The notes: generated from the letters alone by a model not told the origin. A stretch of DNA of 42,544 nt from a virus (IMGVR_UViG_2718218358_000001:1-42544), one strand, 5' to 3'. Numbered from the stretch's first letter, positions 1-41,536 are shown. Translations and numbers: made by a program.

Positions 1-1248
1 ATGGCACTGAATATTCCATTCAGAAATGCGTACTATCGTTTTGCATCCAGTTACTCATTTCTCTTTTTTATTTCCTGGTCGCTGTGGTGGTCGTTATACG
101 CTATTTGGCTGAAAGGACATCTAGGGTTGACAGGGACGGAATTAGGTACACTTTATTCGGTCAACCAGTTTACCAGCATTCTATTTATGATGTTCTACGG
201 CATCGTTCAGGATAAACTCGGTCTGAAGAAACCGCTCATCTGGTGTATGAGTTTCATCCTGGTCTTGACCGGACCGTTTATGATTTACGTTTATGAACCG
301 TTACTGCAAAGCAATTTTTCTGTAGGTCTAATTCTGGGGGCGCTATTTTTTGGCTTGGGGTATCTGGCGGGATGCGGTTTGCTTGATAGCTTCACCGAAA
401 AAATGGCGCGAAATTTTCATTTCGAATATGGAACAGCGCGCGCCTGGGGATCTTTTGGCTATGCTATTGGCGCGTTCTTTGCCGGCATATTTTTTAGTAT
501 CAGTCCCCATATCAACTTCTGGTTGGTCTCGCTATTTGGCGCTGTATTTATGATGATCAACATGCGTTTTAAAGATAAGGATCACCAGTGCGTAGCGGCA
601 GATGCGGGAGGGGTAAAAAAAGAGGATTTTATCGCAGTTTTCAAGGATCGAAACTTCTGGGTTTTCGTCATATTTATTGTGGGGACGTGGTCTTTCTATA
701 ACATTTTTGATCAACAACTTTTTCCTGTCTTTTATGCAGGTTTATTCGAATCACACGATGTAGGAACGCGCCTGTATGGTTATCTCAACTCATTCCAGGT
801 GGTACTCGAAGCGCTGTGCATGGCGATTATTCCTTTCTTTGTGAATCGGGTAGGGCCAAAAAATGCATTACTTATCGGAGTTGTGATTATGGCGTTGCGT
901 ATCCTTTCCTGCGCGCTGTTCGTTAACCCCTGGATTATTTCATTAGTGAAGTTGTTACATGCCATTGAGGTTCCACTTTGTGTCATATCCGTCTTCAAAT
1001 ACAGCGTGGCAAACTTTGATAAGCGCCTGTCGTCGACGATCTTTCTGATTGGTTTTCAAATTGCCAGTTCGCTTGGGATTGTGCTGCTTTCAACGCCGAC
1101 TGGGATACTCTTTGACCACGCAGGCTACCAGACAGTTTTCTTCGCAATTTCGGGTATTGTCTGCCTGATGTTGCTATTTGGCATTTTCTTCTTGAGTAAA
1201 AAACGCGAGCAAATAGTTATGGAAACGCCTGTACCTTCAGCAATATAG
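1..1248 (+). CDS. cscB: sucrose:H+ symporter CscB (LacY / oligosaccharide:H+ symporter family, MFS)
   Basis: 415-aa ORF starting at window position 1 with about 12 hydrophobic segments; N-terminus MALNIPFRNAYYRF and overall LacY-family pattern; recognised from memory as the csc-locus permease that lies next to argW in sucrose-positive E. coli. Confidence 0.85.
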   Translation: MALNIPFRNAYYRFASSYSFLFFISWSLWWSLYAIWLKGHLGLTGTELGTLYSVNQFTSILFMMFYGIVQDKLGLKKPLIWCMSFILVLTGPFMIYVYEPLLQSNFSVGLILGALFFGLGYLAGCGLLDSFTEKMARNFHFEYGTARAWGSFGYAIGAFFAGIFFSISPHINFWLVSLFGAVFMMINMRFKDKDHQCVAADAGGVKKEDFIAVFKDRNFWVFVIFIVGTWSFYNIFDQQLFPVFYAGLFESHDVGTRLYGYLNSFQVVLEALCMAIIPFFVNRVGPKNALLIGVVIMALRILSCALFVNPWIISLVKLLHAIEVPLCVISVFKYSVANFDKRLSSTIFLIGFQIASSLGIVLLSTPTGILFDHAGYQTVFFAISGIVCLMLLFGIFFLSKKREQIVMETPVPSAI

Positions 1249-3457: not shown

Positions 3458-3649
3458 TCACTCTCCTTTGATGCGGAAGTGGTTTTTCCAGCGGTTTTGT
3501 GCCGCGCTTCTGTTTCGCCAGACACCGTAAAAACGAATAGAGGACCACTCTCTAAAACCAAGATATCTATAGCGAACAACAAGCCGATTTGAGATACGGA
3601 TACGCTGCCCGGGCTTTGCTATCAGCATCTTTGCTTTACGGTTTTTCAT
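3458..3649 (-). CDS. hypothetical small basic protein (63 aa)
   Basis: ATG start with GGAGA SD; Arg/Lys-rich. Confidence 0.5.
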   Translation of the reverse strand: MKNRKAKMLIAKPGQRIRISNRLVVRYRYLGFREWSSIRFYGVWRNRSAAQNRWKNHFRIKGE

Positions 3650-3773
3650 CGTTTTGTTCTCCGATTAGTTCAGCCATTTTTATTACCGCCCTTTCGGGCG
3701 GCCTCCTGATGTTCTGAGGGTGCAGAAATCCCTCCGGTTAAGGATTAGATTTTATTTACAACACTAAATTTAA

Positions 3774-4466
3774 TTATTCAGGCGAGCGAATCTGTTCCGC
3801 CCATTCTTCAAGGGATTTCTCCGCATATTCACCAGACAGGCCATCAATCGGATGCGGTTCATTAGCCAACTCTTCTTTCGCTGACAAAATCATGCGTGTA
3901 ACGTCGAAAACTTCACGCAAAGACTTATTGATAAATCCGTGATTGAACGCAGCAGCAAGACGGCTTGCGGTATAGTTAATCCCCTCGTTGCGTGCTTCCG
4001 CACGAATTTTAGCCAGAAAAGCATCGGTGGCTTGGGTTTCGATATCGTTAATTTCAGGAAGAATCTCTTCCCATGTAGCGATATCGCCATTCAAATGCCA
4101 TCCGGCAATTCCACTGGAGTTATCCGCAACACTCCGAACGGCTTCAATAGTTTCATGCATTGCCGCATTCTCCGCCGCCAGCGCCACAAGATTAGCTTCC
4201 AGTTCTGCAATGCGCTTCTCTGCGGTTTCCAGCGTTCTGCCTAGCTCGCCATTCTTCTTCTCCAGCAATTCAATTCGGTCAGCCTGCTGGTTGATATGGT
4301 TGTCCTGTGCGGACCATGCTTTGTCTTTGGATTCCCGTTCATCCAGCAGTGCCAGCACAACCTGAGGTGTGACTTTCATACGAAATGCCAGCAATTTTTG
4401 TGGTGTGGCTGCTATTTTTATTGCTTCTGCCGCTTCACGCAGTGCCTGATAATCAATCTTGCTCAC
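3774..4466 (-). CDS. hypothetical early protein with coiled-coil region
   Basis: 230 aa from a GTG start with AGGAGG SD 6 nt upstream; the GTG overlaps the stop of the upstream small ORF (GTGA); the track ATG at 4487 is an alternative. Confidence 0.6.
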
Positions 4467-4630
4467 TGGTTGCCTCCTTTGCGCCACATCGCATTCAGAT
4501 ATTTGTTTTGATTCACTGATGGAAAAGAATTTCTCTTAAGCAATTCTTCTCTCGATGGCATTGGTTTTACGCGTTGGCGAATAATCATTTCTGCCGGAAG
4601 AATGCCGGGATTGTATGCAAGTCCTCTCAT
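4463..4630 (-). CDS. hypothetical small protein (55 aa)
   Basis: below the ORF-track threshold; ATG at 4630 overlaps the upstream stop (ATGA) and its own stop overlaps the next start, suggesting translational coupling. Confidence 0.35.
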
Positions 4631-4917
4631 GATTTACTCTCCACGAACTGGTCAATAGCCATGCTAAGTGACACACCTAAAGTCTCGATATGCTGCTGAA
4701 TATCCTGTAGCGTCTGCGCCTGAGATAACAGGATTTCACGGTTGCATAACTCTTTAACCAGATGCTCAAACTTGCTGTAATAACCGATACGACTTAGTGT
4801 TTCTTTCCCTGCATTCTCGCCTTCTTTGATAATTCCTCTTTCGCTAAGAATCAGATCGTGTTTGGTTCCGGTAATAACGTATTTTCCGAGGTCGATGTTT
4901 AGCTTCATTGTTTTCAT
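4627..4917 (-). CDS. hypothetical protein (97 aa)
   Basis: track ORF trimmed to the ATG at 4917 with GAGGA SD 7 nt upstream. Confidence 0.5.
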
Positions 4918-4927
4918 TGTTAATTCC

Positions 4928-5221
4928 TCAGTCATTACTGATAGCGCCATAGCGTGAGCGGTAATTACGCAGGCGCGGGTCAATTTCAGGGAAGTGGGTA
5001 TATGTGGCTTTGCGGAATGGTCTGATTGATGTCTGGTAAATTCGCTCGCGTTCTTCTTTCTCTGCAAGCCATATACAGTGGCGAAATTCCTTTTCCTCTT
5101 TCGTTTCCTGCGGTAGCGACATTATCCGGTCGTAGTTTTTCCTGAATTTATCCAGCACCTCCGATACGGAATTGCCGGAACAGCGGCGTGGGTCATCCGC
5201 ACCATACAGAGGCGCTGGCAT
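4928..5221 (-). CDS. hypothetical protein (97 aa)
   Basis: ATG start with AAGGA SD. Confidence 0.55.
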   Translation of the reverse strand: MPAPLYGADDPRRCSGNSVSEVLDKFRKNYDRIMSLPQETKEEKEFRHCIWLAEKEERERIYQTSIRPFRKATYTHFPEIDPRLRNYRSRYGAISND

Positions 5222-5244
5222 AATTAAATCCTTATTTTTCTAAA

Positions 5245-5628
5245 TCAGAATGGGATGGAATCGTCGTATACAGGAGTGTTCTGCTGGTTACTACTTTGCT
5301 GCTGCGGGCCATTTCCTGAAGCTGCAAATCCAATCTTTGCATTCAGTAATTCAAGAGTGATTGATTGACCATTTTGCCCCTGATAAACATCAACCCTGAT
5401 GTTTTCTCCGGTAATTTCCACAATGCCACCTTCAACAAGAACACTACGGTAGTAATCCGCTTGCGCTCCCGGCTTGGCAAATACAACGGCGCTGTAGTTT
5501 GTCCATTCTTTCTTTTTTGTCTGGCGATCGTAATACTGAACGCCAGCACGGATGTTGAATCCGATATTTTCCCCGGCCTGAAACTCTCTTGCGGGCTTGT
5601 TTAGTCTTACAGTAATCGAATGTGCCAT
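5245..5628 (-). CDS. single-strand DNA-binding-like protein (divergent OB-fold candidate with acidic DDSIPF C-terminus)
   Basis: C-terminal DDSIPF resembles the SSB DDDIPF tip; Gln/Asn-rich linker; start ATG overlaps the erf stop (TAATG); the N-terminal fold is not verified. Confidence 0.5.
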   Translation of the reverse strand: MAHSITVRLNKPAREFQAGENIGFNIRAGVQYYDRQTKKKEWTNYSAVVFAKPGAQADYYRSVLVEGGIVEITGENIRVDVYQGQNGQSITLELLNAKIGFAASGNGPQQQSSNQQNTPVYDDSIPF

Positions 5629-6233
5629 TAAGCAGCAGCTCCTTCTAATTCGTCTCGTCTGATGTTGTAAACGTCCTGCGCTTTGTGCTGCTCCGGTGTG
5701 CCTTCGAGCATCTTCCACGCTTTGGCGAACGCCTGTTTAAGCTCTTCTACGGTGTTTTTCTGCATTGCTGCGTCAGTGAATGCTTTTAGAACCTGTTCAG
5801 GTGTAGGTGATGGTTTTGATTGCTTTGCTGCTGCGTTCTGCTGATGTTTATGCTCGTCGGTATCTGCATCTTTCGCATCATCAATGCCGAACAAACCATT
5901 GAGGCAATACTTGCGTGCATAAGAGCTTGTGGCTCCCGTAACTTGTGCAGAATCCATTCCTTTCTTGCTTTCTTCCTCTCGTGCAAGAGCGGTTGCCGTA
6001 TGACTGTTTTCGCCATCGGTAATAGTTGCCGTGGCTTTCACGTAATACCGATCACCAATCAACACAACTTCATCGCTGATTGATAAAAACAGACCATTCA
6101 GTAACGGCTTAACGCCTTCAAGAATATCTTCGCAGCTTCTGTATTTATATTTACCGAATGAGTTGTACTGATTTTTTGGCGCGTTCAGATTCTCCTGAAT
6201 AGCTGCCAGTCTTGCGTAAAATTCTTTGCTCAT
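5628..6233 (-). CDS. erf: Erf-family single-strand annealing recombinase
   Basis: MSKEFYARLAAIQENLNAPKNQYNSFGKYKYRSCEDILEGVKPLL... matches remembered P22 Erf. Confidence 0.85.
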   Translation of the reverse strand: MSKEFYARLAAIQENLNAPKNQYNSFGKYKYRSCEDILEGVKPLLNGLFLSISDEVVLIGDRYYVKATATITDGENSHTATALAREEESKKGMDSAQVTGATSSYARKYCLNGLFGIDDAKDADTDEHKHQQNAAAKQSKPSPTPEQVLKAFTDAAMQKNTVEELKQAFAKAWKMLEGTPEQHKAQDVYNIRRDELEGAAA

Positions 6234-6322
6234 ATGTTTGTTCTCAGAATGGACATGGCCCAAGGAAATAACGCTGATTTAATACTTCAGTCTTTGCCGC
6301 ATTCAAAAATACGCGAACACCT

Positions 6323-6493
6323 TCACGATCTCCCTTCTGGCGATACATTAACGCCTGCTGCGTGTACATGCGTCTCTGTAACTTGCTCTCCTTCACTGTG
6401 GTTGCAAGTGACATGCATATCTCCTTCGTTACCGATTAAATCTTTCATCTGACGAATGAATTCTTCGTCTGACCAGTTATCTGTAAAACTCAT
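6323..6493 (-). CDS. hypothetical small protein (56 aa)
   Basis: ATG at 6493 with CAGGAA SD; overlaps the upstream stop (ATGA). Confidence 0.35.
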   Translation of the reverse strand: MSFTDNWSDEEFIRQMKDLIGNEGDMHVTCNHSEGEQVTETHVHAAGVNVSPEGRS

Positions 6494-6642
6494 TTCCTGC
6501 GATACCACGGAATGTTGATAGCTGATTTCATCGCTTTATTTGCTTCAAGCCACATTTTGGAATCACCAATAAATCTGGCTATTACTGCTTTGTTCTGTGC
6601 AGCACGAAGCATCTGGTGATTAATGGCTATTTCATTGCGCAT
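6490..6642 (-). CDS. hypothetical small protein (50 aa)
   Basis: below the track threshold; translationally coupled to neighbours. Confidence 0.3.
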   Translation of the reverse strand: MRNEIAINHQMLRAAQNKAVIARFIGDSKMWLEANKAMKSAINIPWYRRK

Positions 6643-6761
6643 AACGCCTCCAGTTGTTTCTTTGCTGCTCTGATTAATTGTTTAACTCGGCGTGATAATT
6701 CAGATTCGTGCGGGTAGAAAGCGGACATGACGCCGCTACCCGCGAGCTGAAAGTGCATCAT
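6627..6761 (-). CDS. hypothetical small protein (44 aa)
   Basis: ATG at 6761 preceded by AAGGAG SD at ideal spacing. Confidence 0.35.
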   Translation of the reverse strand: MMHFQLAGSGVMSAFYPHESELSRRVKQLIRAAKKQLEALCAMK

Positions 6762-11078: not shown

Positions 11079-12504
11079 TTTTTATGCGCCGCCCCATAGC
11101 ATCGAGGCAGAGCAGGCGGTGATTGGTGGATTGCTTCTGGATGATGACAGCAGTGAGCGCGTCCAGAAAGTTCTGGCGATGCTGAAGCCTGATTCATTTT
11201 ACAGCCGACCACACAAAATCCTTTTCGAAGAAATAACCAGAATGCACCGGGAGCAAAAGCCAGTAGATGGCCTGACGCTTTTCGATGAACTGGAGCGCAA
11301 ATCGTTAACGGCGTCTGTTGGCGGTTTTGCTTATATCGCTGAGATCGCAAAGAACACGCCAAGCGCAGCAAACATCGTTGCCTATGCAATGCAGGTTCGT
11401 GAAACCGCAATGGAACGCTACGCCATCAACCGCATGACTGAAGCGACGGAATTGCTCTATTCCCGCAACGGAATGACTGCAACGCAGAAGTACGAAGCTA
11501 TTCAGGCGATTTTCACGCAACTGACAGACCATGCAAAAACCGGATCGCGTCGCGGCCTTCGCTCATTTGGTGAGGTCATGGAAGACTGGGTTAGCGACCT
11601 TGAGAAGCGATTTGACCCGTCAGGCGAACAACGAGGAATGAGCACAGGGATCCCATCGCTGGACAGGATGCTGTCACCGAAAGGTCTGGTGAAAGGCTCT
11701 CTGTTTGTCATTGGCGCTCGCCCTAAGATGGGGAAAACGACGCTATACAGCCAGATGGCAATCAACTGCGCAGTGCATGAGAAAAAGCCCGCTCTGATGT
11801 TCAGCCTTGAAATGCCCGGTGATCAGATACTGGAAAAACTGGTAGGACAGAAGTCAGGTGTTAACCCGAATATTTTTTACCTTCCGGCGACAAATGACGC
11901 TGATGACGGCTATCAGGGTGATTACGATGGTGACTTCAACAGGGCGATCGAAACAGCTAATCGCTTGAGTGAAATCGACATGCTTTACATCGACGACACG
12001 CCGGGATTATCTCTGTCTCAAATCGTCAGCGAAAGCCGTCGAATCAAACGAGAAAAAGGATGCGTTGGCATGATTCTGGTCGATTACCTGACACTAATGA
12101 CCGCTGAGAAGGCCGATCGCAACGACCTTGCTTACGGCATGATCACCAAAGGACTGAAGAACCTTGCCAAAGAGCTTGATTGCGTTGTTGTGCTTCTGAC
12201 GCAGCTTAACCGCGCACTGGAAAGCCGAACCAATAAACGCCCATTACCAAGTGACTCACGAGATACAGGGCAGATTGAACAGGATTGCGATTATTGGGTT
12301 GGGATCCATCGTGAAGGCGCTTTTGATGACAGTGTTCCACCTGGTGAAACCGAACTAATCCTTCGTCTCAATCGTCATGGCAATACCGGCACGGTGTATT
12401 GCATTCAGGCAAATGGCGCTATTTATGACACAGACCAACAGTCTGCTGAAATGCGCCGACGTGAACGCGAGGAACCGCAGTCCAAGAAGAAAGGAGGATT
12501 CTGA
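11068..12504 (+). CDS. replicative DNA helicase (DnaB family, P22 gp12-like)
   Basis: Walker A GARPKMGKT; N-terminal DnaB motif EAEQAVIGGLLLD; 478 aa. Confidence 0.85.
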   Translation: MTDNFYAPPHSIEAEQAVIGGLLLDDDSSERVQKVLAMLKPDSFYSRPHKILFEEITRMHREQKPVDGLTLFDELERKSLTASVGGFAYIAEIAKNTPSAANIVAYAMQVRETAMERYAINRMTEATELLYSRNGMTATQKYEAIQAIFTQLTDHAKTGSRRGLRSFGEVMEDWVSDLEKRFDPSGEQRGMSTGIPSLDRMLSPKGLVKGSLFVIGARPKMGKTTLYSQMAINCAVHEKKPALMFSLEMPGDQILEKLVGQKSGVNPNIFYLPATNDADDGYQGDYDGDFNRAIETANRLSEIDMLYIDDTPGLSLSQIVSESRRIKREKGCVGMILVDYLTLMTAEKADRNDLAYGMITKGLKNLAKELDCVVVLLTQLNRALESRTNKRPLPSDSRDTGQIEQDCDYWVGIHREGAFDDSVPPGETELILRLNRHGNTGTVYCIQANGAIYDTDQQSAEMRRREREEPQSKKKGGF

Positions 12505-12532
12505 TGACCATCTACATCACTGAGCTAATAAC

Positions 12533-12564
12533 AGGCCTGCTGGTAATCGCAGGCCTTTTTATTT
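12533..12564 (+). terminator. rho-independent terminator (tR2-like) between the replication genes and the nin region
   Basis: stem AGGCCTGC/GCAGGCCT with an 8-nt loop, then TTTTTATTT. Confidence 0.55.
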
Positions 12565-12579
12565 GGGGGAGAGTAAATC

Positions 12580-12786
12580 GTGGCTGAGTTTATGCTCGTC
12601 GCACTCAAATGCGTTGGCGTTGGATGGATTCTTCTGACGTTTTTTATTGTTCTGCATAGCTACATTCGTCTTGTGAATGACGGCAAAGACCCATGGTATA
12701 CGTTGTTTGGCGCTGCATTTGTCTGGGTGATTATCGGTGTTATGCCTGTTGTCGTAGCAAAAATGGCGTGGCGTTTTGTGAGTTGA
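12580..12786 (+). CDS. hypothetical small membrane protein
   Basis: GTG start with GGGGGAGAG SD (in-frame ATG at 12592 is an alternative); two hydrophobic segments. Confidence 0.45.
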   Translation: MAEFMLVALKCVGVGWILLTFFIVLHSYIRLVNDGKDPWYTLFGAAFVWVIIGVMPVVVAKMAWRFVS

Positions 12787-12803
12787 ACTGAGGGTAAGTA
12801 TCG

Positions 12804-13115
12804 ATGGACGAATCAAGAAAGCAGTTTGAAGAATGGTTTGAAAATTACACCGGATGTGATCCTAAAAATAAAATATACGCCAATATGGTTGAGATGTATT
12901 GGCAAGCGTGGCAGGCATCGCGAGCAGCTATTGAACTGGATATCGACTGGCCAGAATCGAATGACGACTTTTGGAAAGATGGTGAAGAAGGTGCTTATGC
13001 GATGGGTTATGAGGATGGGAGTGACAAAACGGTAATTGCAGTAATGAAAGCTATCAGAGCCGCTGGAATTAAAGAGAAGAATTTCGATGAAGCAAACAAT
13101 CTTCCTCCGAACTAA
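12804..13115 (+). CDS. hypothetical nin-region protein (103 aa)
   Basis: ATG with GAGGG SD. Confidence 0.5.
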   Translation: MDESRKQFEEWFENYTGCDPKNKIYANMVEMYWQAWQASRAAIELDIDWPESNDDFWKDGEEGAYAMGYEDGSDKTVIAVMKAIRAAGIKEKNFDEANNLPPN

Positions 13116-13497
13116 GCAACAACAGCAAGCCGCAATCAACGCCATCCTCGCAACACCACTCGATAAAGACAAGCCAGTTACCATCCGCATTACTGACTAC
13201 AAGCGCAACCTTGACCAGAACGCAAAATTTCACGCTATGGTCGCAGATATCGCCAGGCAAGTTCAATGGTGCGGAAAATGGTTAAAACCGGAACAATGGA
13301 AGGTTTTGTTGATCAGCGGTCATGCAGTGGCAACAAAGCAGGAAGCTGATGTTTTGCCCGGCCTTGAAGGCGAATACGTCAACATTCGCGAAAGTAGCGC
13401 GCAGATGAGTGTGAAGCGTATGGCAAGTCTGATTGAGTACACGACAGCATGGGCTATTGGTCAGGGTGTCAGGTTCACTGACGGGAGGTACGATTGA
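13087..13497 (+). CDS. ninB: NinB recombination protein (Orf-like)
   Basis: 136 aa; resembles remembered lambda NinB (ITDYKRNLDQNAKFHAMVADIARQVQWCGKWL). Confidence 0.7.
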   Translation: MKQTIFLRTKQQQQAAINAILATPLDKDKPVTIRITDYKRNLDQNAKFHAMVADIARQVQWCGKWLKPEQWKVLLISGHAVATKQEADVLPGLEGEYVNIRESSAQMSVKRMASLIEYTTAWAIGQGVRFTDGRYD

Positions 13498-13694
13498 AGC
13501 TCACATGGTTTCACCATCACGACCTCACCAACGAAGAAGCAACTCAGTTAATCACCGCCTACCAATCCCGCAACGTAAAAACTCAACGAACGCTAAGCGC
13601 AGACCCTCGGTTATGGGTGGTTTCCGCGTTGCTTCCAGAATACGCCAGCGAGCCAAAGGGTAGGAGTAAGTATCAACAGAGGGTATGGGCATGA
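13494..13694 (+). CDS. hypothetical nin-region protein (66 aa)
   Basis: start overlaps the ninB stop (ATGA). Confidence 0.4.
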   Translation: MKLTWFHHHDLTNEEATQLITAYQSRNVKTQRTLSADPRLWVVSALLPEYASEPKGRSKYQQRVWA

Positions 13695-14527
13695 AGCACG
13701 TAGTTTTGTATAGCGGAGGCCACTCCTCGGCAATTGTCGCGATAGAGGTGGTCAGAAAATATGGAAGAGAAAATGTCATCCTGCTTAACCACGACATCAG
13801 TAGCACAGTAGAAGACGAGGACATCAAGAGATTTAAGGATGAGATATCAAGTTATTTAGGGATAGATGTTACGTATGCCAACCATGAAAGGTGGAAAGAC
13901 GCTACTCCAATATCTGTTTGCCTTGACGCGAGGGCATGGAAAGTTGGATCAGGTCAAATTCTATGCACCAACAGGCTTAAGACAGGACCGTTTGATCTGT
14001 GGCTGGAGCGTAATGATAGCCAAAAGGAAAATATCTACTACTACGGATTTGACAGAAATGAAATGCATCGAGTTCAGCGCCGCGTGGGTGTTATGGCTGA
14101 ACGAGGTTATAAAACTGACTATCCGATTGCCCTATGGCCGCAAAGAACAATCCACTCTACGGAAGAAATTGGCATTAACCGCCCAATGGCTTATTCGAGA
14201 TTTAAGCACGCAAATTGCATTGGCTGTTTAAAGGCAGGATGGCAACACTGGTACTGCGTTTATGTGCTTCGTAAAGACATCTGGAATGAGGCGAAAGCTG
14301 CGGAAGAGGAAATCGGATATGCAATTCACAAGGATGAAGCTGGCGCAGTTTATTTGGAGGAAAGGGAGGGGTTATTTGCCGAAATGGAAAGACTTGGAAT
14401 TCAGCCAAATGAACACGTCCCATCTGGAAAATTCTGGAGTATTGCTAAGCAAGCAGTTGCTGAGCGAGCTCTGCAAATAGACATGTTTGCCGATGACGAC
14501 GCATTACCTTGCGAATGTTCAACCTGA
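13691..14527 (+). CDS. PP-loop ATP pyrophosphatase of the PAPS-reductase superfamily
   Basis: N-terminal VVLYSGGHSS PP-loop motif; 279 aa; ATG at 13691. Confidence 0.65.
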   Translation: MKHVVLYSGGHSSAIVAIEVVRKYGRENVILLNHDISSTVEDEDIKRFKDEISSYLGIDVTYANHERWKDATPISVCLDARAWKVGSGQILCTNRLKTGPFDLWLERNDSQKENIYYYGFDRNEMHRVQRRVGVMAERGYKTDYPIALWPQRTIHSTEEIGINRPMAYSRFKHANCIGCLKAGWQHWYCVYVLRKDIWNEAKAAEEEIGYAIHKDEAGAVYLEEREGLFAEMERLGIQPNEHVPSGKFWSIAKQAVAERALQIDMFADDDALPCECST

Positions 14528-14537
14528 GGAAATAGCT

Positions 14538-14807
14538 ATGAGCGCAGAAGAAGACTACATCGAGCGTTTCTCTGACCTCATGGAAGATGCAGAAAGCGAA
14601 GGAGTCGACGGCATAAACATCATGATGAATTACCTTATGGCTTATGTGGAGGCAATGACAGGGGGCGAAGAAGAGCAGGGAATTATCTGGCAGTTAGGCG
14701 ACAAAGACCTGGTTATTTCCATTGAACCAGCAGAGCAAGCGGCGAGGTTTCACCGACATCATCTGCGAAAACTGCAAATACCTTCCAACGAAACGCTCCA
14801 GAAATAA
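14538..14807 (+). CDS. hypothetical acidic protein (89 aa)
   Basis: ATG with GAGGA SD; its 3' end overlaps the ninE start by 86 nt in another frame, so one of the two boundaries may be wrong. Confidence 0.4.
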
Positions 14808-14904
14808 ACGCAAGCCAATCCCAAAAGAATCTGACGTAAAAACCTTCAATTACACGGCTCACCTGTGGGATATCCGGTGGCTAAGACATCGTGCGAGGAA
14901 ATGA
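14722..14904 (+). CDS. ninE: NinE
   Basis: [44 protein letters not shown] matches remembered lambda NinE. Confidence 0.7.
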
Positions 14905-15308
14905 CAATGCTTTTAATTCAACCTGGATTTGGCCTTAGCATCAAAAAAGGGCACATGTTTGGCGAGAAAGAGTCTCAACGAAAAATGGTGTCTATCCAGT
15001 TGCCATTTATCAGTATTTTATGGCTAAACAGGGAGGCAACAAATTATTGGTATACATGCGCCAGAGCAGCATTTAACGACCCTGACTGGTTTGTGGAAAA
15101 CCACCACGCAGTTCGTCAGGCAAAGAGAAAGGCCAATACGACATACATGAAGGCGTATCGAAAAGCATGGAAAGAACACCGCGATCGATACCAACAAGAC
15201 ATGGAAAAACTTGAATCAGAAAACATGGAATTAAGACGAAAGCTTGGTGAAGCAAAACGAGACATTGATGCTTACAAGCGACTTTTTAATGGTGAAAGCC
15301 ATGCTTAG
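14901..15308 (+). CDS. hypothetical nin-region protein (135 aa)
   Basis: ATG overlaps the ninE stop (ATGA) with GAGGAA SD. Confidence 0.5.
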
Positions 15309-15477
15309 CCCATCCCAATCTCTTCAATACCAGAAAGAAAGCGTCGAGCGGGCTTTAACGTGCGCTAACTGCGGCCAGAAGCTGCATGTGCTGGAAGTTC
15401 ACGTGTGTGAGCACTGCTGCGCAGAACTGATGAGCGATCCGAATAGCTCAATGTACGAGGAAGAAGACGATGGCTAA
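15301..15477 (+). CDS. ninF: NinF
   Basis: 58 aa; [43 protein letters not shown] matches remembered lambda NinF. Confidence 0.7.
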
Positions 15478-16081
15478 ACCAGCGCGAAGACGATGTAAAA
15501 ACGATGAATGTCGGGAATGGTTTCACCCTGCATTCGCTAATCAGTGGTGGTGCTCTCCAGAGTGTGGAACCAAGATAGCACTCGAACGACGAAGTAAAGA
15601 ACGCGAAAAAGCGGAAAAAGCAGCAGAGAAGAAACGACGACGAGAGGATCAGAAACAGAAAGATAAACTTAAGATTCGAAAACTCTCCTTAAAGCCCCGC
15701 AGTTACTGGATTAAACAAGCCCAACAAGCCGTAAACGCCTTCATCAGAGAAAGAGACCGCGACTTACCATGTATCTCGTGCGGAACGCTCACGTCTGCTC
15801 AGTGGGATGCTGGACATTACCGGACAACTGCTGCAGCACCTCAACTCCGATTTGATGAACGCAATATTCACAAGCAATGCGTGGTGTGCAACCAGCACAA
15901 AAGCGGAAATCTCGTTCCGTATCGCGTCGAACTGATTAACCGCATCGGGCAGGAAGCAGTAGACGAAATCGAATCAAACCATAGCCGCCATCGCTGGACT
16001 ATCGAAGAGTGCAAGGCGATCAAGGCAGAGTACCAACAGAAACTCAAAGACCTGCGAAATAGCAGAAGTGAGGCCGCATGA
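15470..16081 (+). CDS. ninG: NinG (Rap-like recombination endonuclease)
   Basis: 203 aa; Cys-rich N-terminus plus basic region; typical nin position and size. Confidence 0.75.
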
Positions 16082-19460: not shown

Positions 19461-19982
19461 ATGAATATCGTGCCACTTAATTACAAAGGTGAAATTGTCA
19501 GTTTCAACACTGATGGTTGGATCAACGTCACAGGTGTTGCTGAGAGATTTGGGAAACGCATTGATAACTGGATGCGTTTGGCAGAAACGCTTGAATACGT
19601 TCGTGCTTTAGACGAAGCGTTGACTGGGAAAGAATCTCAAATTTTACATCCCTCACAATCGAGGTATGTAAAAACCAGCAAGGCACGAAAGGACAGGGGT
19701 GGTGGTACGTGGCTACATCCAAAACTTTCAGTTGCATTTGCCCGTTGGTGTGATGCTCGTTTTGCTGTGTGGTGCGACCTGCACATTGATAGTCTGCTTC
19801 GCGGTGAACTGACTGAGCAGCAGAAATATGAGCAAGCATGTCGCATTCGCGATGACCGGAAATCAAAAGCCAGCAATGGGGCAAGAGAGATGGCTCGCTG
19901 GCGATGGGATAAGCCGGTTATTGAAGCAAATGTTGAGTACTGGCGCGAGCAACTGCAGTTGACTCTCGATATCGCGTGCTGA
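19461..19982 (+). CDS. KilA-N domain DNA-binding protein (moron)
   Basis: N-terminal KilA-N/APSES-like pattern GWINVTGVAERFGKRIDNWMRLAETLEYVRAL. Confidence 0.6.
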   Translation: MNIVPLNYKGEIVSFNTDGWINVTGVAERFGKRIDNWMRLAETLEYVRALDEALTGKESQILHPSQSRYVKTSKARKDRGGGTWLHPKLSVAFARWCDARFAVWCDLHIDSLLRGELTEQQKYEQACRIRDDRKSKASNGAREMARWRWDKPVIEANVEYWREQLQLTLDIAC

Positions 19983-37946: not shown

Positions 37947-39968
37947 ATGACAGATTCAATAAATGCCAATGTTGTAGTGAGCATGCCATCGCAACTCTTC
38001 ACTATGGCTCGTTCTTTTAAAGCAGTTGCCAATGGCAAAATTTATATCGGTAAAATTGACACTGACCCGGTAAATCCTGAAAACCAGATTCAGGTTTATG
38101 TGGAGAACGAAGACGGTTCTCACGTTCCTGTTGCACAGCCAATCATCATTAACGCTGCTGGTTACCCTGTATATAATGGACAGATTTCCAAATTCGTAAC
38201 TGTGCAAGGCCATTCTATGGCTGTTTATGATGCGTACGGTGTGCAGCAGTTCAAATTCCCAAATGTGCTGAAGTATGACCCTGATCAATTAAGAGAGGAA
38301 TTATCTAGTAAAGGTGGTTTTAATTTAGTTGGTGAGTTGGGTGCTGTATCTGATTTTTATGGAATGGAATCTAATAATGGAGATAAGGTTTTACTAAAGT
38401 CATGGTATCGAGATGGAAGTGGTGGTGGTGGTATTTTTGAGTTTAATGACAGCATAATAAGGTCGAAGCATGACGGAGGGTGTATAATATCACCATCAGT
38501 TCCATATATTGGAGATGCATATGTATCAGACTATGTAAACGGAGTTGGAGATGAACATCCATCATCAAACGGTTGTTGGGTTAGAAGAGACATCAAAGAA
38601 ATCACAGGTGAAATGTATGGTATGCATGGAAATCCTGATGATAACTTGGACTTATCACCAAATCTAAGGAAGGCCATTTCAGCCGCCGGAGTTCTTGGGC
38701 TTGGGGTCGTTTTACCAGGCAATATTATAAATTTAAAATCACCAGTATCAATACCAATACACCAGAGAGAAGGTGGAAAAGTAGCTTATATAAGAGGTGT
38801 TGACGAAAAGTTATCAATAGTAAATATACTAGCTTCAGAAACTTCGCAGAATAATTTCGGTATTTATCTTGATGGCTCTCTTTCAGTATTTTCATCATTC
38901 CCCATAGAAAACCTCACCATCAGATCTGTAGATTCAAGTGGCAATAGATCTGACTGGTCAGGATGTGGATTAAATATAAACAAATGCATCAGGCTTTCAA
39001 TGAGGAATGTTCTGATAGATGGCTTTGAGATTGGGTGTAAACTGAAAGATTCATTATATCTTGAGTTTAACAATTGTAGATTTACTTATAACAAAACAGC
39101 AATACAAGGAAGACTTGGTGAAGTGTCAGGACCAAACTCAATAAGACTTTCACGCTGTGATTTTCAGTACAATGCTGAATTTTGTATAGAAAACCAACAC
39201 GCACACGCTTGGAAAATTGACACTTGTACGTTTGAAGCAAATGGAGGGAAATCATATTCCAACGGGACTCCAATTGCATTTAATTCGTGCGTACAGTTTG
39301 CGTTGATTGGTGGTGCAGGTCGTGTCGCAGCAACAATTGATAATTGCTATTTCGAATCAAATACTGGTTCTGATGTGAGTTTTTACATAAACAGAAACTT
39401 AAATCAAATTATTAACATAAATAATTCAATATTTAACTATAATTTAGATTCCGTTAGCGCATCTAGAGTTATAGTACAATCAAATCAATCAGATCTCAGT
39501 TCTGGTGTTCAATGTTATTTGAATATGATGGGAAATGGTTTTCTTAACACTGGTGCTTCTGCTGAATCTGCATTTAAAGAAGTGCAATTTGCCGTCCCTT
39601 CATCTTTTGGCGTTAGCCATCTTGTTTTTACAGACTTTGGCAACCAAAATTCAATGAAATCACCATATTCTGGATTGGAAAAAGTTCAGAGAAATAGCCA
39701 AGGGCTGGTATCGGCAAGAGCAAATATTTCATCTACAGGTGCTTATTCATTAGCTCAGAACATATCAAATGTATCTAGACTGTCACCAGGAACATATAAG
39801 ATAGATTTTACATTTAACGTTTCAACACTCGTTCCAAATATTACATTGTTTGGAGGATCTGGTAGATATTCAAGTTTCTCAAGGGATTCAGACTATTCAA
39901 TTACGGTTAAGACATTTAATAATACAGGTGCCAATGTTGATTTGGATTTTATTATTACAGTAATGTAA
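37947..39968 (+). CDS. tailspike protein (P22 gp9-type head-binding N-terminus; divergent beta-helix receptor-binding body)
   Basis: N-terminal 110 aa ([37 protein letters not shown]...[14 protein letters not shown]...NVLKYDPDQ) match the remembered P22 tailspike head-binding domain; remainder Asn/Ser/Gly-rich with beta-helix-like repeats and AT-rich. Confidence 0.85.
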
Positions 39969-40142: not shown

Positions 40143-41300
40143 TCACTCCGCCTTTTCATCAATCCAATCCGCCCACCACTGCATCATTTCTCTGCGCTTA
40201 TCGAGATACTGAGCATGGTTGTAAACCCCGCGCACAGATCCGCCATTGGCATGTGCCAGTTGCACTTCAATAGCGTCAGCAGGCCATTCGTGCTCGTTCA
40301 TAATCGTGCTGAATTCATGCCTGAATCCGTGACCGCTTTCCAGCCCCTCATAGCCGATTTGTTTGATCACAAGTAGCACCGCGTTCTCGCAGATTGGCTT
40401 CTTCTTATCGTTGCGTCCGGCAAAAACAAACTCTGATACCGGTTTAGTGATTGAGCTTAGCGTAGTGAGAAGTTCAATAACCTGGTCCGACATAGGAACC
40501 ACATGAATCTTGCGTCCTTTCATCACACTGGCGTCGATGGTGATAATCCTGTTTTCAAAATCGACGTTCTTCCATAGCATGGAACGAAGCTCTTTCGTTC
40601 TTATGGCTGTGTAGCGTAAAATTTTGGTCGCAATGAGCGATACGATACTTCCTGAAAATGTTGCCAGTGCTTTGTTGAATGCCGGGATCTGGTCTGCAGG
40701 AAGAAACGGGAAGTTCTTCTTGCGGTATCCCTTCATGGCGTCAGCAAGGTCAGGTGCCGGGTTATATTTAGCCCTTCCGGTGACAATAGCGTAACGGAAA
40801 ACCTCGCCGCATCTTCTGCGTGCTTTGTTGGCTCGTTCCATTGCACCGCGATCTTCAAACCTGCGGATTACTTCCAGCAGTTGCATCGGCTCAATATCCT
40901 GAATTTCAAGGCCGCCAATGATAGGTAAAATGTCGTCGTCAAACATTTTGGCAAGTTCAGTTGCATACCCTACTGACCATACTTGCTTCTTGTGCTCGTA
41001 CCATTCCTTGTAAATCGCACTAAATGAATTGTTGTTAGACGAAGCCTTTTTCGCCTTTACCGGATCGATGCCAACCGAGATGTCTTTCCTCGCAGTCCAT
41101 GCCTTATCCCTTGCTTCCTGCAAAGTCATAAGCGGATATTTTCCGACGGTCAGGATTTTCTCCTTACCGTCAATCTTGTAGCGAAGCTGCCATACCTTTT
41201 TCCCTGACACAGGGACATAAAGGTACAGGCCATTACCATCGAGAAGGCGGTATGGTTTTTCTTTCGGCTTTGCTGCTTCAATCTGCTTAACGGTGAGCAT
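40143..41300 (-). CDS. intS: tyrosine integrase, IntS type
   Basis: 385 aa from the ATG at 41300 (track start at 41336 is a GTG without SD); recognised as the argW-prophage integrase; C-terminal catalytic region with HGFRHEFST and Tyr. Confidence 0.9.
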   Translation of the reverse strand: MLTVKQIEAAKPKEKPYRLLDGNGLYLYVPVSGKKVWQLRYKIDGKEKILTVGKYPLMTLQEARDKAWTARKDISVGIDPVKAKKASSNNNSFSAIYKEWYEHKKQVWSVGYATELAKMFDDDILPIIGGLEIQDIEPMQLLEVIRRFEDRGAMERANKARRRCGEVFRYAIVTGRAKYNPAPDLADAMKGYRKKNFPFLPADQIPAFNKALATFSGSIVSLIATKILRYTAIRTKELRSMLWKNVDFENRIITIDASVMKGRKIHVVPMSDQVIELLTTLSSITKPVSEFVFAGRNDKKKPICENAVLLVIKQIGYEGLESGHGFRHEFSTIMNEHEWPADAIEVQLAHANGGSVRGVYNHAQYLDKRREMMQWWADWIDEKAE

Positions 41301-41461
41301 GGGTAAAAATCCGGTGGGTAAAATTATTTTATCCACTTTTTACCCGTCATGGAGTGCGGCTGTCAACGATCTGAAGCGAACCATGACGAACTGTGAATCT
41401 ACGGAAGGCTTGATATTCAGGGGATTTTGCGGACTGGTACGGATGGGAGCGAACTGATAAA

Positions 41462-41476
41462 TGGTGTCCCCTGCAG
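41462..41476. repeat. att core copy at the intS-proximal junction, inside the argW 3' end
   Basis: exact match to 1690..1704. Confidence 0.7.
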
Positions 41477-41536
41477 GAATCGAACCTGCAATTAGCCCTT
41501 AGGAGGGGCTCGTTATATCCATTTAACTAAGAGGAC
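41462..41536 (-). tRNA. argW: tRNA-Arg (anticodon CCU), argW
   Basis: minus strand reads GTCCTCTTAGTTAAATGGATATAACGAGCCCCTCCTAAGGGCTAATTGCAGGTTCGATTCCTGCAGGGGACACCA; cloverleaf with T-loop GGTTCGATTCC and terminal CCA. Confidence 0.85.

Follow-up and report, generated by a model that had tools for sequence, protein, structure and literature searches.

A PP-loop protein of the nin region of a P22-like prophage: likeness to SspD and a possible role in sulfur transfer to nucleic acid

Genes labelled "PAPS reductase" are among the commonest unexplained genes of phages, and they are usually filed as auxiliaries of sulfur metabolism. One of them lies in the nin region of the virus IMGVR_UViG_2718218358_000001, of which 42,544 nucleotides were analysed (hereafter the window); the whole window is a P22-like (Lederbergvirus-type) lambdoid prophage. 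The locus raises the question of what such a protein does for a phage of this kind. A preliminary description, made from the sequence alone, had suggested that the protein may modify phage DNA or act against host restriction, rather than take part in sulfate assimilation.

The gene, its operon and its family

The gene and its surroundings comprise the following features.

13087..13497, + strand: ninB (Orf recombination mediator), left border of the slot; Pfam NinB, 4.1e-55
13494..13694, + strand: upstream 66-aa ORF, phrog_1212, no function ascribed; its stop and the start codon of the gene overlap
~13498..14737, + strand: replaceable three-ORF cassette of 1.24 kb, from ninB to ninE, holding the gene
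13678..13683, + strand: Shine-Dalgarno-like AGAGGG, read from the sequence, 7 nt ahead of the ATG at 13691
13691..14527, + strand: coding sequence of the PP-loop protein (SspD-like / PptA-like), 278 aa plus stop
14538..14807, + strand: downstream ORF of ~89 aa, phrog_38761, no function ascribed; begins 11 nt past the stop of the gene
14722..14904, + strand: ninE, right border of the slot; Pfam NinE, 8.5e-41
Flanking gene: ninF; Pfam NinF, 3e-12
15470..16081: ninG; Pfam NinG, 6.6e-91

The enclosing ORF (13685..14527, + strand) offers two candidate ATGs, at 13685 and 13691, and the latter is preferred because of the AGAGGG placed 7 nt before it. This ATG and the stop of the upstream ORF overlap in an ATGA; it coincides with the start annotated in phage Huey, and the N-terminus that it gives agrees with those of 52 homologues (MKHVV...). 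A start there yields a product of 278 aa; the 279 residues of the preliminary description are the correct number of codons with the stop included, and the SGGHSS PP-loop motif that it placed near the N-terminus is present at residues 8-13. The gene is real, not a chance reading frame, with at least 1,722 homologues at E ≤ 1e-3 in a collection of 5.8 billion proteins and a confident AlphaFold model.

The nin-region setting was also described correctly, since Pfam confirms NinB, NinE, NinF and NinG as neighbours; a NinI-type phosphatase and Q follow ninG, going by how the near-identical phage Huey is annotated. The gene lies close against the neighbour on either side, and no promoter-like site was found in 12500-15500, from which it follows that the gene is part of the delayed-early lytic operon and is transcribed with the nin region. 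No GC anomaly was found at the gene, and this normal GC, together with the lack of a promoter of its own, leaves no sign of a separately regulated moron. In the downstream ORF, the phrog_38761 match starts at residue 18 of the ORF as listed, and the ATG at 14538 is preceded, at a distance of 7 nt, by a GAGGA.

The gene is rare in E. coli, and its protein family is large and well conserved. Near-identical copies (99.8-100%) occur in phage Huey (99.8%, one phage record) and in 5 of 5,426 complete E. coli genomes, and Huey alone among 420 matching phage records covers the cassette stretch. In other lambdoid phages the cassette is absent: either ninB abuts ninE, or a Dam-type methyltransferase gene stands before ninE or after the helicase gene, as in mEp043, mEp506 and IME10, and lambdoid DNA homology starts again at ~14738. 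Because sister lambdoid phages carry a Dam-type methyltransferase in the same nin slot, there is circumstantial reason to regard the ninB-ninE slot as one in which DNA-modification functions are swapped.

Beyond E. coli, the family is about 50% identical across phyla, and its profile recovers 1,016 clusters at 50% identity. There are 237 confirmed loci in IMG/VR and a further set of 77 among 185,579 species genomes (40-64% identity); the hosts of the genomic loci are Gamma- and Betaproteobacteria, Clostridia, Paenibacillus and Bacteroidota, with more matches in MAGs of other phyla. None of the 120 homologues listed has a precomputed Pfam domain. The family is one without a Pfam model, and it is located in phage DNA-metabolism modules, as described below.

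To describe the context, 155 loci from IMG/VR and GTDB genomes were sorted into 93 groups at 80% identity of the target protein, and their ORFs were called and clustered. Even the commonest neighbour family is present in at most 9% of the 93 groups, so that there is no dedicated, conserved partner gene; the phrog_1212 and phrog_38761 ORFs, too, are not kept as neighbours across the family in this set. The recurrent neighbours are DnaB helicase, family-A DNA polymerase (PolA), 5'-3' exonuclease, HNH nucleases and the resolvases NinG, RusA, endonuclease I and VRR-NUC. DNA methyltransferases occur in 12 of the 93 groups and comprise Dam, two C5 families and one unannotated family with an NPPY motif. 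In a Shewanella prophage, the next gene downstream of the family member is Dam.

Placement within the PP-loop superfamily

Membership of the PP-loop (PAPS-reductase) superfamily, as initially proposed, is upheld by the match to PHROG 424 (9e-28), by the fold, and by remote relatives that match PF01507 (PAPS_reduct). The AlphaFold (AF2) model, with a pLDDT of 88.6, has a strand at residues 3-6, then a loop, then a helix at residues 11-24, which is the arrangement of a Rossmann-like PP-loop, and its significant structural neighbours are all PP-loop enzymes. To this PP-loop alpha/beta fold is added a conserved C-terminal helical region specific to the family.

Conservation was read from an alignment of 52 homologues with 53-86% identity (A1), a wider set with 25-33% identity, of whose 41 members 30 match PF01507 (A2), a profile of residues 70-200 only (A3), and a joint alignment with two operon-verified SspDs, PptA and lambda NinC (A4). 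The conserved motifs are as follows.

13712..13729, + strand: PP-loop SGGHSS, residues 8-13, an SGGxDS variant with Ser for Asp; S8, G9, G10 and S13 invariant in A1
13961..13993, + strand: LCTNRLKTGPF, residues 91-101, with C92 and K97; invariant in A1, A2 and A4
14213..14239, + strand: NCIGCLKAG, residues 175-183, with C176-x2-C179; invariant in A1, A2 and A4
14507..14518, + strand: C-terminal dyad PCEC, with C274 and C276; invariant in A1

Besides these residues, R95 is among those invariant in A1. In A2, the invariant residues are S8, G10, S13, C92, K97, N175, C176 and C179, with C274 almost invariant, and in A4 the loop residues S8, G10 and S13 show no exception even when SspD, PptA and NinC are included, the loop of the SspDs being SGGKDS. 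The C-terminus reads ...DDALPCECST (family consensus PCEC/CLDC), and a C-x1-3-C tail dyad is present in 76 of the 93 family groups. The last 20 residues have a pLDDT of 48-57, and the tail carrying C274 and C276 is probably flexible, as judged from the model. It is uncertain whether the protein retains ATP pyrophosphatase activity, given that the Asp of the loop is Ser here and that the loop of PptA is degenerate (SCGAPS).

The label "phosphoadenosine phosphosulfate reductase", given by PHROG 424 and by the annotation of Huey, names the superfamily, not the function. Taken literally, it would make the protein an auxiliary PAPS/APS reductase that boosts host sulfate assimilation, a reading with which the PF01507 matches of the remote relatives (30 of 41) and a fold resembling CysH and APS reductase agree. 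The protein itself, however, has no PF01507 match at E ≤ 10, and two further family members are also negative; on the same scale, two genuine SspDs pass (39-53 bits), lambda NinC passes (36 bits, 7e-9) and PptA is sub-threshold. In Pfam as a whole, the sole match at E ≤ 10 is one of 12 bits to a DUF.

The likeness to CysH consists of a PP-loop-type alpha/beta core and a C-terminal tail with a cysteine, whereas the TM-scores are just 0.3-0.4 and no sequence match extends beyond the PP-loop region. ECGLH is the C-terminal catalytic motif of CysH, and it is absent from the C-terminus of the phage protein. C92, C176 and C179 may resemble the CC...CxxC ligands of APS reductase; the A3 profile, built to look for such a correspondence, found no CysH, PAPS reductase or APS reductase in the PDB and matched PptA alone. 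Moreover, the gene stands in a delayed-early lytic operon, and its solved relative, PptA, was deposited with IscS, whereas the PAPS reductase complex retrieved by the fold search (2o8v) is one with thioredoxin. We therefore consider a PAPS/APS reductase highly improbable, and the rejection of sulfate assimilation in the preliminary description stands.

A second enzyme of the superfamily to be weighed is a QueC-like one acting in a 7-deazaguanine DNA-modification pathway. Apart from the shared superfamily, the sequence hints at it through a weak NCBIfam match to QatC that covers the PP-loop only (12.8 bits, 0.041, vs a cut-off of 280) and is one of the sub-threshold PP-loop matches to which NCBIfam is confined; phage QueC models also occur far down the BFVD list. 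These phage QueC structures, however, align poorly (E ≥ 2e-3, TM ~0.3), the Pfam QueC model is silent, and no DpdA, FolE, QueD or QueE-type gene is found among the annotated recurrent neighbours in the 93 locus groups. This reading is more improbable still, and the deazapurine option raised at the outset finds no support. Sulfate assimilation and deazapurine synthesis are both effectively excluded.

DndC, the third subfamily considered in the preliminary description, belongs to the same superfamily, and together with BrxP and TdpC it would share the presumed chemistry of the phage protein. DndC has been described with a 4Fe-4S centre on three cysteines and a separate dyad thought to carry sulfur, and by analogy this parallels the 3+2 cysteine pattern seen here. 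However, DndC and BrxP are much larger (profiles of ~470-780 positions), no ATPase partner is linked to the phage gene, and the PADLOC models for DndC and BrxP do not match the protein at E ≤ 10. The comparison of subfamilies by profile and structure thus removes CysH-like, QueC-like and DndC proper, and the protein is resolved as SspD-like instead.

By sequence comparison, the nearest named and characterised family is SspD, the PP-loop subunit of the SspABCD DNA-phosphorothioation system. SspD is the sole defence-system model of PADLOC that matches the protein (PDLC02782, 6.9e-8, 30.5 bits, residues 4-210 vs positions 1-202 of 277), although PADLOC gives no curated cut-off for this model, and the same model ranks first for PptA, for NinC and for six further relatives (1e-8 to 4e-20). 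As a reference, one genuine sspBCD operon each was taken from Trichormus variabilis and Acinetobacter baumannii, both of which encode a DUF4007 SspB, an ATPase of ~1,100 aa and an SspD of 268-280 aa. In a profile-to-sequence comparison by hhalign, A. baumannii SspD is matched with 96.6% probability (E 5.9e-10), over ~195 columns.

The two proteins are of the same length class (268-280 aa) and have the PP-loop in the same position. They share the CTxxLK..PF motif (WCTRQLKLTPFKKW vs LCTNRLKTGPFDLW), with LCTNRLKTGPF aligned to WCTRQLKLTPF of A. baumannii, and a CxxC pair, with NCIGCLKAG aligned to SGC(F/T)FC of SspD. Both end with a cysteine dyad 3-6 residues from the C-terminus, PCECST here vs CFACHL/CLVCHK in SspD, and C276 aligns with the last Cys of these SspD tails. 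In A4, S8, G10, S13, C92, K97, C176 and C179 are invariant with the SspDs, and C276 is at least 90% conserved.

We note several differences between the phage protein and SspD. The identity is 19-20%, and the PP-loop is SGGHSS vs SGGKDS; the phage protein fails PF01507, whereas genuine SspDs pass. It has a conserved C-terminal helical region of its own, and it stands alone in the phage, with no SspB (DUF4007), SspC ATPase or DndD/E gene as a neighbour in the window or in the 93 locus groups.

PptA, IscS and lambda NinC

Only one solved relative is matched beyond the PP-loop, namely PptA (PDB 21fy, chain C), with 1e-13 by phmmer, 1.6e-19 with profile A1, 2.5e-56 with profile A2, and 26% identity over 231 columns by BLASTP. 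Because PptA scores so much better with A2 than with A1, the subfamily studied here is placed by these profiles as a sister to the PptA clade, not within it. The pptA gene was located by means of residues 30-249 of the deposited chain, rebuilt from the printed alignment. It is an ORF left without annotation in the T7-like Vibrio phage vB_VhaP_VH-5, where it immediately follows the gene for RNA polymerase. Like the protein of the window, PptA is phage-encoded, stand-alone and of similar length, with the same cysteine pattern. In contrast, it comes from a lytic T7-like phage, its PP-loop departs further from the consensus, and the cysteines of its tail form a CxxxC (CSLVC), which is comparable to PCEC but offset from the C276 column in the alignment.

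The identical 404-aa E. coli IscS sequence is found in exactly two PDB entries, 1p3w and 21fy, and since 21fy holds both sequences, PptA was deposited together with IscS. No publication on PptA function was found in the full-text literature, where hits to the name are unrelated uses. By analogy, this co-deposition is the strongest available pointer to a sulfur relay, and it suggests that the phage protein probably draws its sulfur from host IscS.

The same entry can be read in another way. A protein that mimics SspD might act as an inhibitor or decoy, binding IscS or the host SspB/C or DndD/E and thereby disturbing phosphorothioation (PT) immunity or iron-sulfur and thiolation metabolism, with the phage DNA left unmodified. 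The sole experimental fact on a relative, namely the PDB entry that PptA shares with IscS, agrees with this reading, and PP-loops off the catalytic consensus (SGGHSS here, SCGAPS in PptA) and the absence of linked partner genes point the same way. However, S8, G9, G10, S13, K97 and five cysteines are invariant over 52 sequences, and most of them hold down to 25% identity; such strict invariance argues for an active-site pattern, not a binding surface alone. An inhibitor or decoy is therefore regarded as rather unlikely.

Lambda NinC, for which no assigned function was found in the literature, occupies the slot directly after ninB and also has a PP-loop, a C..LK motif, a CxxC and a C-terminal dyad (CSESC); its best defence-model match is likewise SspD. 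It differs in its low identity to the phage protein (22-24%, with a pairwise E of 5e-5 from a two-sequence comparison), in an insertion of ~25 residues and in passing PF01507, and a tblastn search of lambda with the protein gave no match at 1e-5. From these comparisons, lambda NinC appears as a remote relative in the same genomic slot. A CRISPRi study found lambda ninC to be nonessential once polar effects on Q were complemented; ninC is thus dispensable on laboratory hosts.

Proposed function and its alternatives

In every PT system described so far, sulfur is inserted by a protein of the PAPS-reductase type (DndC, SspD, BrxP); SspABCD is the one that acts in single-strand DNA phosphorothioation, and IscS is able to stand in for DndA or SspA. 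Ssp, Dnd and BREX-4 require an ATPase and a DNA-recognition or nicking partner. For the Tdp system, in contrast, tdpC alone was reported to be sufficient, and the title of the TdpC study states that it acts via an adenylated intermediate. With TdpC there is thus an example of PT synthesis that needs one gene, likened to the phage protein by description only.

Phages, too, have been found with such domains. A two-gene cassette of a Vibrio crassostreae phage, consisting of 44E38.1 p0018, a PAPS-domain::Dam fusion, and p0019, a gene with no function ascribed, was shown by genetics to overcome Dnd restriction, which makes the anti-restriction idea reasonable. As in p0018, where a phage PAPS-reductase-type domain is tied to DNA methylation, the present family stands beside Dam or C5 methyltransferases in 12 of 93 groups. 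Unlike the protein of the window, p0018 is a fusion of 479 aa in which the contribution of the PAPS domain was not separated, and the likeness between the two is one of description only. In addition, a 2026 survey reported PAPS reductases in Aca-regulated anti-defence operons, as predicted DndC/SspD homologues. The anti-Dnd protein JSS1_004 was considered as a relative and rejected, being an unrelated kinase/shutoff protein.

The explanation that we favour, at just under even confidence, is that the protein is a sulfurtransferase which takes sulfur from IscS and adds it to nucleic acid, most probably to the DNA backbone, and so counters restriction. As suggested by the PptA/IscS entry, the protein would dock on the host cysteine desulfurase IscS and accept persulfide sulfur, for which the C274/C276 dyad on the flexible C-terminal tail is the likely acceptor. 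The PP-loop site would spend ATP to activate the target oxygen as an adenylate, in line with the chemistry of DndC, SspD and TdpC, and the C92/C176/C179 triad may coordinate a metal or an iron-sulfur cluster with a part in sulfur delivery. If the target is the DNA backbone, phosphorothioate marks would be set on replicating phage DNA, and DNA so marked could be taken for "self" by PT-dependent restriction (Dnd/Ssp) or could withstand nucleases. Since there is no SspB/SspC or DndD/E partner nearby, the protein would have to act alone, as reported for TdpC, or with host factors.

Several findings count against this explanation. The PP-loop is altered, no ATPase or DNA-recognition partner of the kind needed by Ssp, Dnd and BREX-4 is linked to the gene, and the hhalign match to SspD spans just ~195 columns at 19-20% identity. 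As lambda ninC can be dispensed with on laboratory hosts, any role would moreover be a conditional one. The protein is also mildly acidic, with a pI of 5.8, which is listed on the same side and is of no help in deciding the substrate.

The same sulfur supply and adenylation chemistry could also serve an RNA or nucleotide thiolase, in which IscS sulfur and the PP-loop would be used to thiolate tRNA (as in ThiI, TtcA, TtuA and MnmA) or another base, possibly in order to tune translation or to shield tRNAs from anticodon nucleases. However, the nearest named family by sequence is SspD, not a tRNA thiolase, and the matches to MnmA, LarE and QueC are confined to the PP-loop, with E > 0.01. Neither Pfam nor NCBIfam detects a THUMP or other RNA-binding domain, and the neighbourhood is one of DNA replication, recombination and methylation. 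An RNA or nucleotide thiolase is accordingly given a small probability.

Returning to thiolation of the DNA backbone, a bolder form of the favoured explanation can be put forward, tentatively and with appreciably less confidence than the general one. The 278-aa protein may be a self-sufficient writer that passes persulfide from IscS to the replicating phage genome as PT (or, less likely, thiolates bases or tRNA), and may thereby provide a portable mimic of the PT "self" mark for temperate and lytic phages across phyla.

The present analysis sets a well-conserved subfamily without a Pfam model beside SspD and beside a phage protein that was co-deposited with IscS. If these proteins do phosphorothioate phage DNA unaided, they would represent a compact means of counter-defence, directed at PT-based restriction and possibly at other kinds, and would offer biotechnology a minimal PT-writing enzyme. 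Corrections to many database annotations would then be due, and the lambda NinC class of genes would gain a function after some forty years.

Mosaic slot and signals of the nin region

The slot between ninB and ninE, in which the gene of the SspD-like/PptA-like PP-loop protein lies, is mosaic, as seen in a comparison of the window with the phages IME10, mEp043 and mEp506.

window 13498–14737: mosaic slot between ninB and ninE
IME10 (L167) 1827–2372: region compared with this slot

The slot is either empty or occupied by ninD in most lambdoid phages, and in lambda it holds ninC. In several lambdoid phages, a Dam-type methyltransferase is found immediately 5′ of ninE or 3′ of the helicase gene. 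The three-ORF cassette which fills the slot in the window is shared, among the 420 matching phage records, with phage Huey only. Two further features flank this part of the operon.

12533–12556, plus strand: strong terminator-like hairpin (8 pairs, 6 of them G–C, followed by a T-run)
14865–15308, plus strand: ORF between ninE and ninF (phrog_1511, 3.5e-85)

The hairpin is located just 3′ of the DnaB-like helicase gene and 5′ of the nin genes, i.e., in a position like that of lambda tR2. The ORF has a listed GTG start which overlaps ninE; the PHROG match begins at residue 15, and the internal Met is thus probably the true start. In related phages, the gene 3′ of ninE is annotated as NinX or DUF2591.

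Window ends and the anti-CRISPR annotation

1–1248, plus strand: 415-aa protein of unknown function (phrog_17800, 8e-182)
37947–39968: tailspike gene
40143–41336, minus strand: tyrosine-integrase gene (phrog_1, 3e-80)
41462–41536, minus strand: tRNA-Arg(CCT) gene
Huey (L001) 11759–12843: two genes annotated as anti-CRISPR proteins, 3′ of the lysis cassette

The integrase gene comes next after the tailspike gene and directly adjoins the tRNA gene; this arrangement looks like the attachment end of the prophage, located at a tRNA of the argU type. At the other end, position 1 is exactly the ATG of the phrog_17800 protein gene. The window counterpart of the Huey anti-CRISPR genes, ORF 19461–19982, matches Rha/transcriptional-regulator PHROGs instead, and the Huey annotation thus looks doubtful.

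Relatives of the PP-loop protein

Vibrio phage VH-5 (L005) 5974–6726: PptA gene
Citrobacter prophage (L006) 3466–6376: homologue neighbourhood

The PP-loop of PptA, the only solved relative, reads SCGAPS, which is much more remote from SGGxDS than the SGGHSS of the target protein, raising the question of whether PptA can hydrolyse ATP.

The Citrobacter homologue has, on its upstream side, a 346-aa protein that weakly matches HTH_ParB and, downstream, a member of the dATP/dGTP pyrophosphohydrolase family (PF04447) together with a DUF551 protein; this is a further neighbourhood of nucleotide/DNA metabolism for the PP-loop protein family. Homologues from Clostridia, Paenibacillus, Bacteroidota and Proteobacteria (genome_contigs loci L090–L166) still exhibit 40–64% identity to the target, an E. 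coli prophage protein, which is unusually high for a phage accessory gene. This conservation suggests that the family has a universal partner or substrate.
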